From a candidate division WWE3 bacterium (GTDB lineage Bacteria; Patescibacteriota; WWE3; UBA101185; UBA10185), in contig JAAZNV010000007.1 in NCBI GenBank assembly GCA_012798115.1, positions 25,586-89,585 of the forward strand: a DNA stretch of 64,000 bases, given 5' to 3'. The position numbers were made by a program, and so were the translations under genes. Below the pieces are notes generated by a model, which searched no databases, was not told the DNA's origin, and saw only the letters and a list, made by a program, of their open reading frames with translations. Shown one piece after another: positions 6,528 through 8,409 of this stretch; position 1 is the first letter of the stretch; every line of letters starts with the position of its first letter.

Positions 6528-6775
6528 ATTAACTAAACGTTATACTTTACATGCACTACAGGTTGTCAGGTAAGCACACTAAACAGGCCTTATCAATTAC
6601 ACACTAATACTATCGTGTAAGATCGTAAGTCACCTGGGTTTATTTGCTAGAACTTTTCTTTACTGTAGGTGTAATGCTTTGTATACTAACGTTAAGAAGA
6701 AAAAAAACAACGTATTTCTTTATAAGGATGGAAACTGCTAGTGAGAGTACTTGTGGTTGTAGGCGGTTATGTTTT

Positions 6776-7066
6776 ATGAGTAATCTCTTTAGGAAGAAAA
6801 AAGAAAATTTTAAATGTGAAAACTGTGGACATGAAGTAAAAGGAAATGGATATACTAACCACTGCCCTATTTGCTTATATAGCAAACACGTAGATATATT
6901 TCCTGGGGATAGATTAGAAAAGTGTAAAGGTTTAATGAAGCCAATTAGTGTTGATAAAAAAGATGGAGAGTATGTTCTTATACACAAATGTATAAAATGT
7001 GGTGTGGAAAAAAGAAATAAAGTATCTAAAGAAGATAACTTTGAAGAAATAATAAAATTAAGTTAG
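6776..7066 (+). CDS. RNHCP-domain zinc-ribbon protein
   Basis: CENCGHEV...GYTNHCPICLYSKHVD...CIKCG matches RNHCP domain; start taken at internal Met (ORF track begins at 6644). Confidence 0.5.
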   Translation: MSNLFRKKKENFKCENCGHEVKGNGYTNHCPICLYSKHVDIFPGDRLEKCKGLMKPISVDKKDGEYVLIHKCIKCGVEKRNKVSKEDNFEEIIKLS

Positions 7067-7076
7067 GATCTTAATA

Positions 7077-7688
7077 TTATTCTTGTATGCTGATATCAGA
7101 TAAAAAGCCTTTAATTTCTTCATCTGAGACGTATTTGTTTTCTAAGTAATCAATTGTCTCAGAATAATCTATGTCTTGGTAGTATGAAAGTTGCTCTCTG
7201 AATAGTTTTTCATTAAACTCTTGACCAAATATTTCCTTTGCTCTTGTTGTAATGTCAGAAAATTTATTTTCTTTAAAAACAAAGAATAAATCAACGTAGT
7301 CCTTCCATTTTGCTCTTTTTCCTAAGGCAAAAGCTTTCATTGCGGAAAGAGTACTTAGATTTGGTAGTTTAATTATATTTTCAAATGTCTCAGAGTAGTC
7401 TATTTCAAACGGATATGTGAGAAAAGTAAGTTTCACATTATTTACAACAATAGTTAATTCCTCTGTATTTTCTACTAGTGTGTTTTGGATTTGGTATGAT
7501 TGCCTAATTTTGTTTCTAACTTTATCGTGATCAAAGCTCTTGTCTATGAAAAGGTCATAATCTATAGATCTTCTATGCCCAATTTGTAATGCAATAGCAG
7601 TGCCTCCCACTAAACCAAACTCACTAGAAAATGTTTGTAGTAAGGGCAAAAGTTTAATTTGTTCCTCATTTAAAACTTCTTTATGCAT
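7077..7688 (-). CDS. nucleotidyltransferase, AbiEii/AbiGii-toxin-like (DUF1814) family
   Basis: FGLVGGTAIALQIGHRRSIDYDLFI matches the GGTAL...R.S.DiD NTase signature of AbiEii-type toxins. Confidence 0.55.
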   Translation of the reverse strand: MHKEVLNEEQIKLLPLLQTFSSEFGLVGGTAIALQIGHRRSIDYDLFIDKSFDHDKVRNKIRQSYQIQNTLVENTEELTIVVNNVKLTFLTYPFEIDYSETFENIIKLPNLSTLSAMKAFALGKRAKWKDYVDLFFVFKENKFSDITTRAKEIFGQEFNEKLFREQLSYYQDIDYSETIDYLENKYVSDEEIKGFLSDISIQE

Positions 7689-7971
7689 TCTTGTTTAAGT
7701 ATAAAGTAAAATAATTTATTGTTTGAGGTTTTAAGTTTGTTCTCTTTTTACTTGAAATTTCCTTAAATAGTTTATTTATTTCCTTTATGCCAAGTAGTTT
7801 TTTAATATATTGAAAGTCTTCCCAGTTGCCGTAGTTAAATATACTTTCAGCAATAACCTGATATGACAAATTATCATAGTTTGATGTACCCCATGCCAAA
7901 TATGGCCTGGATTTAATATAGCTTCTTGCCTCATTAAGTAAAGGATCAATCATACCCATATTATAGCTCAT
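7681..7971 (-). CDS. small hypothetical protein, putative cognate partner (antitoxin-like) of the AbiEii-like NTase
   Basis: 96 aa, overlaps downstream NTase gene by 8 nt (translational coupling). Confidence 0.35.
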   Translation of the reverse strand: MSYNMGMIDPLLNEARSYIKSRPYLAWGTSNYDNLSYQVIAESIFNYGNWEDFQYIKKLLGIKEINKLFKEISSKKRTNLKPQTINYFTLYLNKNA

Positions 7972-8013
7972 TACTTGTTGTATTTATAATACAGTGTTAT
8001 AAATTAATATAGT

Positions 8014-8409
8014 ATGCAAGAAGAAAATAAAAAAATAAAAAATAATATATTAATAATAGAAGATGAACATGATATTAGATCTATATACGTAGAAGTATTA
8101 AATTCTGCTGGATACAATGTAGATGAAGCTGGAGATGGTGAATCAGGAATGAATAAGATTAAAAATACAGATTGGAATCTTCTTCTTTTAGATATAATGC
8201 TTCCTGGAAGAGATGGTTTGAAGATTCTTAAAGACTTAAAAGAAAATCCTCAGTTTAAAAAAGGTCCTGTTATTGCTTTAACTAATTTGAATAGTGAAAA
8301 TATTATTCAGGAAGCTTTTAGTTCTGGAGCAGATGGTTATTTAATAAAATCAGAAGTTACACCAGATAAGGTTATAGAAGAAGTTGGAAAAGTATTAGGT
8401 AAAGAATAG
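8014..8409 (+). CDS. stand-alone response-regulator receiver (CheY-like) domain protein
   Basis: IEDE...LLLLDIMLPGRDGL...ALT...GADGYLIK receiver motifs (phospho-acceptor Asp in LLDIML). Confidence 0.75.
   Translation: MQEENKKIKNNILIIEDEHDIRSIYVEVLNSAGYNVDEAGDGESGMNKIKNTDWNLLLLDIMLPGRDGLKILKDLKENPQFKKGPVIALTNLNSENIIQEAFSSGADGYLIKSEVTPDKVIEEVGKVLGKE

Follow-up and report, generated by a model that had tools for sequence, protein, structure and literature searches.

A short AbiEii-type nucleotidyltransferase and its small upstream partner: a likely toxin-antitoxin module in a candidate division WWE3 bacterium

Introduction

Nucleotidyltransferase (NTase) toxins of the DUF1814 type are known with three unrelated antitoxin families, and here we describe a gene pair from a candidate division WWE3 bacterium in which such an NTase is preceded by a small partner gene. 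The pair lies in a stretch of 64,000 nt (hereafter the window; GenBank assembly GCA_012798115.1, contig JAAZNV010000007.1, positions 25,586 to 89,585 of the forward strand). Those DUF1814 relatives that have been characterised target the CCA end of tRNAs and block translation (PMC7450476, PMC10435456). In AbiE (Streptococcus agalactiae / Lactococcus) and in MenAT3 and MenAT4, the system is bicistronic with the antitoxin gene first, and the toxins share four NTase motifs. Dy et al. 2014 defined these motifs and found through mutagenesis that AbiEii toxicity depends on them (PMC3985639). Motifs I/II have the form hG[G/S]-x(n)-DhD, in which a conserved Arg stands four residues ahead of the first Asp, motif III is KLxAaxxR-like, and motif IV is +DxxD. 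The antitoxin in these systems is of the COG5340/AbiEi type, with a winged helix-turn-helix and a C-terminal domain in ~200-300 aa. In MenAT1 of Mycobacterium tuberculosis (MenT1/Rv0078A and MenA1/Rv0078B), a short NTase toxin of ~190-200 aa is paired with a small, upstream-encoded antitoxin that has no DNA-binding domain; MenA1 has 68 aa and is largely an extended single helix (PMC10435456).

AbiE and MenAT have recently been reclassified as systems in which antitoxin binding is combined with induced auto-phosphorylation of the toxin (PMC11375011; bioRxiv 10.64898/2026.01.19.700257). Auto-phosphorylation of the toxin has been reported for MenA1, MenA3 and AbiEi, antitoxins whose folds are mutually unrelated or only partly related; the phospho-acceptors are T65 of AbiEii, S78 of MenT3 and T39 of MenT1 (PMC11375011; bioRxiv 10.64898/2026.01.19.700257). 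AbiE has been described as one of the most abundant phage-defence families (PMC11375011), and under-detection of the defence and toxin-antitoxin (TA) repertoire in bacteria of the Candidate Phyla Radiation (CPR) has been commented on (PMC12259885).

The pair in the window resembles MenAT1 in its short NTase and in its small upstream partner without a DNA-binding domain, and it resembles AbiE, MenAT3 and MenAT4 in its gene order and its four motifs. With neither an AbiEi nor a MenA1, it appears to be neither AbiE nor MenAT1, while it would work like MenAT/AbiE. We consider it likely that the pair is a translationally coupled two-gene TA module of the MenAT/AbiE type with a new antitoxin family. 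The NTase family is already known; the novelty seems to lie in the antitoxin family and in its strict, conserved link to a subfamily of short NTases centred on CPR.

Results and discussion

The nucleotidyltransferase

The NTase is a bona fide DUF1814/AbiEii nucleotidyltransferase, as a first-pass annotation of the window, made from the sequence alone, had proposed. The profile search suggested there gave a match to PF08843 (AbiEii, formerly DUF1814) at 37.9 bits, above the cut-off of 22.5 (E 2.4e-9, residues 19-159); all four motifs are intact, and the closest folds are those of MenT1, JHP933 and MenT4. Motifs I and II read V27-G28-G29-x13-D43-Y-D45, with R39-x-S41-x-D43-x-D45 (the motif quoted in the annotation, LVGGTAIALQIGHRRSIDYDLFI, corresponds to residues 26-48); motif III is K118-AFALGK-R125 and motif IV is K129-D130-Y-V-D133. 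Among 78 aligned sequences, R39, D43, R125, K129, D130 and D133 are each present in 78/78, G29, D45 and K118 in 77/78, and G28 in 75/78. With intact motifs that 75-78 of the 78 sequences retain, the NTase appears to be an active enzyme maintained by selection. Ser41, too, is invariant in this alignment; it lies two residues before the first catalytic Asp, which is the position of the phospho-acceptors AbiEii T65, MenT3 S78 and MenT1 T39.

The same protein sequence occurs in a candidate division WWE3 genome, where it has already been annotated as 'nucleotidyl transferase AbiEii/AbiGii toxin family protein'. A word-index search returned 5,954 relatives of the NTase; the best 120 are all 172-209 aa long and come mostly from CPR/Patescibacteria, and AbiEii, MenT3 and MenT4 are ~80-90 aa longer than the NTase of the window. 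NCBIfam gave only noise for both the NTase and the partner, and a PHROGs search returned no match.

The AlphaFold2 (AF2) model of the NTase has a predicted local distance difference test (pLDDT) score of 94.4. When it was compared with the PDB using Foldseek, the top match was MenT1 of M. tuberculosis (8an5_B; E 2.4e-6, template modelling (TM) scores 0.56/0.61), to which the NTase is only ~18% identical in the structural alignment; JHP933 of Helicobacter pylori and MenT4 (6y56) came next, and generic Pol-beta-type NTases and CCA-adding enzymes ranked below them. The model has the bi-lobed Pol-beta-type NTase fold of the solved MenT and JHP933 structures. Comparing the sequence itself with solved structures, singly or as a profile, gave nothing meaningful, and the link to MenT1 thus comes from the comparison of predicted folds only. 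JHP933 (PDB 4O8S/4OK0) is likewise a short NTase of the DUF1814 type, and its gene lies in an accessory region of the genome; unlike the NTase of the window, it has no partner-family gene that we could find, and the sequence identity between the two is ~14-18%. We know of no TA toxin role for JHP933.

Conservation of the gene pair

Both ORFs (open reading frames) were found where the first-pass annotation had placed them (Table 1), and the 8-nt overlap that it claimed is exact. On the minus strand the partner ends ...AAG AAT GCA TAA (Ala-stop), while the NTase begins ATG CAT AAA GAA (Met-His-Lys), so that the two frames share ATGCATAA, the presumed site of translational coupling. A small ORF upstream of the NTase is thus present as described; the length of 96 aa given for it probably does not hold, because all of its homologues begin at the equivalent of codon 7 (MIDP...), and the true start is probably the third ATG, at 7953, which yields 90 aa.

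To follow the pair across genomes we used the NTase alignment to scan a single genome of each species, which gave 564 relatives; the best 80 loci were kept, and 77 of these were testable, the NTase lying at a contig edge in the other three. In 77/77 testable loci the hidden Markov model (HMM) of the partner family matches the ORF directly upstream on the same strand, and a lone NTase was not seen in any of them. The overlap is exactly 8 nt (ATGCATAA) in 52/77 loci, which fits translational coupling, and 4-56 nt in most of the others; one locus only has a sizeable gap. In the reverse direction, an AbiEii NTase of 202-208 aa follows the partner in 7 of the 8 partner homologues that were looked up. 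The pairwise distances of partner and NTase are correlated (r=0.72, a value reached in 0/999 Mantel permutations), and the two proteins appear to co-evolve. Given thousands of NTase homologues, 520 partner representatives, and an adjacency and overlap conserved over 77 independent genomes, neither ORF is a chance reading frame. The annotation had named two outcomes that would speak against its proposal, namely an NTase of a housekeeping family and a small ORF that is not conserved with it; the NTase proved to be of the AbiEii family, and the small ORF accompanies it throughout.

Judged by their record titles, CPR lineages account for 54/80 loci, the remainder being labelled Omnitrophota, Nitrospirae, Deltaproteobacteria, Aminicenantes, Marinimicrobia, Bacteroidales and others. 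Other TA genes are found around related loci, among them zeta toxin, MNT/HEPN, MenA1-like pairs and other AbiEii genes.

Some of these loci hold further genes of related types. At L084:2071-2989 and L123:566-1841, more distant AbiEii NTases (227 and 231 aa) adjoin partner-family genes and carry their own, different upstream partners of 88 aa and 195 aa, which shows further diversity among the partners of AbiEii-type NTases. At locus L091 an orphan canonical DUF6922 gene of 88 aa (L091:3589-3855) lies immediately downstream of a related partner-NTase pair, and beyond it a 58-aa Rv0078B (MenA1)-like gene and then one of 190 aa (L091:4209-4944) look like a MenAT1-like pair beside the partner-NTase pair. 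The small ORF upstream of an NTase match on Campylobacter p16192 was considered as a partner and rejected, being unrelated to the partner family.

The chromosomal slot

We used the neighbouring response regulator as a probe for related slots. Aligning empty sites with the window using MAFFT scatters the short sequences, and we therefore relied on tblastn coordinates as evidence of insertion or deletion. In the window, the slot from the RNHCP gene to the response-regulator gene measures 947 nt, and the same arrangement of RNHCP gene, module and response regulator is found in the close relatives L097 and L098. In the more distant relatives L100-L103 and L105, where the regulator is 71-73% identical, the module is absent and only ~75 nt separate the flanking genes; in L104 the slot is occupied by an unrelated 143-aa ORF (L104:1426-1857). 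A further close relative, L128, has kept an 82%-identical partner in the same slot and lost ~555 nt of the NTase gene; the deletion apparently runs from one AACAAATA-like microhomology to another and leaves the partner fused to the final 17 codons of the NTase. A comparable state is seen in P0287, a partner fused to an NTase without motifs I/II. From these slot states (empty, full module, partner only), the module is an accessory insertion/deletion polymorphism. Its G+C content is slightly lower than that of the window (0.297 vs 0.336).

These slots bear on whether the pair could instead be a two-subunit enzyme that carries out a regulated, non-toxic nucleotide transfer such as RNA 3'-end repair or tailing, with the partner as a substrate-recruiting or specificity subunit. 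The co-occurrence, coupling and co-evolution described above fit an obligate heterodimer equally well, and the basic partner (isoelectric point (pI) 9.46) could bind RNA. However, the module is wholly absent from the same site in close relatives, the NTase can be deleted with the partner kept, the distribution is patchy across unrelated phyla, the genes are found together with other TA genes, and homologues of the partner carry antitoxin-like N-terminal domains of the helix-turn-helix (HTH) or ribbon-helix-helix (RHH) type; moreover, every characterised DUF1814 relative is a toxin (PMC7450476, PMC10435456, PMC3985639). We therefore regard a two-subunit enzyme as improbable.

The partner protein

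The partner is confidently predicted to be a compact, all-alpha protein of five helices, and this fold found no match among solved structures; a search of the PDB with the single sequence gave a borderline match to the winged-helix domain of RPC6 (E 1e-3). There was no AbiEi match in Pfam, and none to PF18993 (Rv0078B, MenA1) at E<=1. The latter result is informative because the PF18993 model does detect the Rv0078B-like gene pair beside locus L091. The partner thus differs from the extended MenA1, to which it is unrelated, and from the much larger AbiEi antitoxins. A profile search of 1.84 billion sequences recovered 520 cluster representatives at E<=1e-3. The suggestion in the first-pass annotation that the partner may be a distinct antitoxin family has held up well, as it matches neither AbiEi nor MenA1 in Pfam, has no structural match, and yet is strictly co-conserved with the NTase; it looks like a previously undescribed antitoxin family.

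The nearest Pfam family is DUF6922 (PF21956), to which neither a function nor a publication is attached, and with which the partner has in common a core of ~35-50 residues (the FW...L...VE.ILNYGD...L...LG region). The DUF6922 model matches 51/74 partner-family members at E<=0.01, and a few relatives pass its cut-off (P0357 with 29.5 bits; P0005, P0143 and others through precomputed PF21956 matches). A tblastn search of the plasmid collection with a canonical DUF6922 member found nothing. On present sequence comparisons, the relationship between the partner and DUF6922 stays sub-threshold.

Two homologues carry names that are evidently mis-annotations of the partner family: P0009, of 85 aa, is named 'UDP-glucose 4-epimerase' by JGI (Joint Genome Institute), and P0198 is named 'uncharacterized protein YerC'.

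Which of the two genes encodes the antitoxin is suggested by three lines of evidence. The partner gene lies upstream of the NTase gene, as in AbiE and MenAT. In longer homologues a DNA-binding domain stands ahead of the partner domain, still preceding the NTase: HTH_3 in P0369 and P0388, HTH_17 in P0250, RHH_1 in P0246, and a weak NikA-like RHH in P0357. Finally, decay is one-sided, in that L128 and P0287 have kept the partner, and no lone NTase was found among the 77 loci. Together, these observations point to the small gene as the antitoxin. A DNA-binding domain joined to a neutralising domain is the standard modular layout of antitoxins, and the way in which homologues add such a DNA-binding domain ahead of the partner domain argues that the latter would itself be the neutralising part and not the DNA-binding part.

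The opposite polarity, as in MNT-HEPN, would make the small protein the toxin and the NTase an antitoxin that inactivates it by nucleotidylation. An NTase antitoxin has a precedent in MntA-HepT (PMC7641770), and MNT-HEPN pairs adjoin some of the related loci. Yet the small gene persists as an orphan after loss of the NTase (L128, P0287, P0225), which would be intolerable for a toxin; it occupies the upstream position typical of antitoxins and gains DNA-binding domains; and the NTase is of the DUF1814 and not of the MNT type. Reversed polarity is accordingly the reading to which we give least credence, and we hold it to be extremely improbable.

Upstream region

The AT-rich intergenic region between the partner gene and the divergent response-regulator gene must hold the promoter of the module. 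A consensus scan found no promoter in this region and no terminator after the NTase gene. A TATAAT lies at 7965-7960, just ahead of the probable start at 7953, and its position hints at a leaderless or very-short-leader mRNA. The region also contains an imperfect palindrome, ATTTATAATAC-A-GTGTTATAAAT (inverted repeat I2), with 11-nt arms that are 91% complementary; little of it is conserved in the 83%-identical locus L098, and it may be a chance product of AT-rich DNA. From the promoter scan and the poor conservation of the palindrome in L098, the module has no obvious operator.

The annotation had labelled the pair a putative type IV module, a term inherited from the older AbiE literature. 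In a classical type IV arrangement the partner would repress the operon as a small DNA-binding protein and would neutralise the toxin only transcriptionally or without contact with the NTase. Its basic character, the palindrome upstream and the borderline RPC6 winged-helix match are all compatible with such a role; even so, a 90-aa partner without a DNA-binding domain more probably acts by direct contact, and we consider a type IV repressor very improbable.

Proposed mechanism

Reading the pair as a TA module of the MenAT/AbiE type, we suggest that the NTase would add nucleotides to the 3' CCA ends of tRNAs, by analogy with MenT1, MenT3, MenT4 and AbiEii; aminoacylation would then be blocked and growth would stop. 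The partner would be the cognate protein antitoxin, a stand-alone toxin-neutralising domain that most likely binds the NTase directly. Direct binding is what one would expect from a partner that lacks a DNA-binding domain, is held in fixed stoichiometric coupling with the NTase, and appears to co-evolve with it. Binding might occlude the active site of the NTase, or it might reposition the Ser41 loop such that the NTase phosphorylates itself, in a type VII-like manner. Auto-phosphorylation at Ser41 is drawn by analogy with MenAT and AbiE, and we put it forward only tentatively; that Ser41 is invariant hints at it but does not prove it.

Several observations weigh against this interpretation or parts of it. 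The PADLOC AbiEii matches to the NTase are weak. One partner homologue, P0225, is an orphan, and other TA genes cluster around it. Viral contigs yielded no relatives of the NTase, the plasmid collection contained no match to the partner and two weak matches only to the NTase, and no mobile-element genes flank the pair within the window. The charges are inverted relative to many TA pairs, with an acidic NTase (pI 4.9) and a basic partner, an unusual pattern; the partner of the window is a bare domain without a DNA-binding domain for auto-regulation. With respect to DUF6922, the partner of the window scores 19.6-19.8 bits, below the gathering threshold of 27 bits, and the canonical DUF6922 protein of locus L091 is missed by the partner-family HMM and gives an unconvincing alignment in hhalign.

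If the TA reading is true, the pair would be expected to escape detection tools that require AbiEi as well as AbiEii. The partner would then be a conserved and well-defined fourth antitoxin family for these toxins, with a predicted fold that has no solved relative, and the partner HMM built here would allow such systems to be annotated. We also speculate, going further than we think probable, that the DUF6922-like partner is a fourth antitoxin class for DUF1814 toxins with a new fold, a portable neutralising domain of ~85 aa found alone or behind HTH/RHH domains, which switches off a MenT1-like tRNA NTase via auto-phosphorylation of Ser41; in this combined form the proposal is rather unlikely. 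If this combined reading is true, it would extend the type VII model of antitoxin-induced auto-phosphorylation to a third unrelated antitoxin fold, and it would point to an AbiE-like defence/TA system, common in CPR, which annotation centred on AbiEi is not expected to recognise. The pair thus offers a clean case for asking whether antitoxin-induced auto-phosphorylation of the motif-I Ser/Thr is general, whatever the fold of the antitoxin.

Neighbouring genes

Table 1. Positions of the gene pair, its surroundings and other features within the window.
Feature	Position	Strand	Remarks
NTase ORF, predicted toxin, 203 aa	7077..7688	-	PF08843 match, motifs, predicted fold
Small partner, predicted antitoxin, 90 aa from M7	7681..7953	-	all-alpha five-helix (predicted), pI 9.5, DUF6922-related (sub-threshold)
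Partner ORF as listed, 96 aa, open to ATG at 7971	7681..7971	-	
Gene overlap ATGCATAA, 8 nt	7681..7688	-	read directly in the sequence
AT-rich divergent intergenic region, 60 nt	7954..8013	.	between partner and response-regulator gene
Imperfect palindrome	7982-8004		
Slot from RNHCP gene to response-regulator gene	7067-8013		
Response-regulator gene	8014-8409	+	
RNHCP-domain gene, listed ORF 140 aa from TTG	6644-7066	+	converges with NTase gene
ORF of 266 aa	4213-5013	-	
Cys-rich protein of 730 aa	10005-12197	+	

The RNHCP-domain gene has its stop 10 nt from that of the NTase gene. Its ORF as listed is probably too long, the domain and the homologues beginning near an ATG at ~6779 (MSNLFRKKKENFKCENCG...).

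The 266-aa ORF carries a Pol-beta-like NTase signature, LLLGGSLAL...NASDVDFFIIVDD; it had no Pfam or PHROG match, and its similarity in the PDB to chains named 'Nucleotidyltransferase' (6p8u/6p82) was non-significant (E 0.9). This ORF, which lies ~2 kb away from the module, may encode another, unclassified nucleotidyltransferase.

The 730-aa Cys-rich protein contains a thrombospondin type-1 repeat (PF00090, E 1.5e-5), an unusual feature for a CPR bacterium; relatives located at the same position in L100 and L102 have this region in common.
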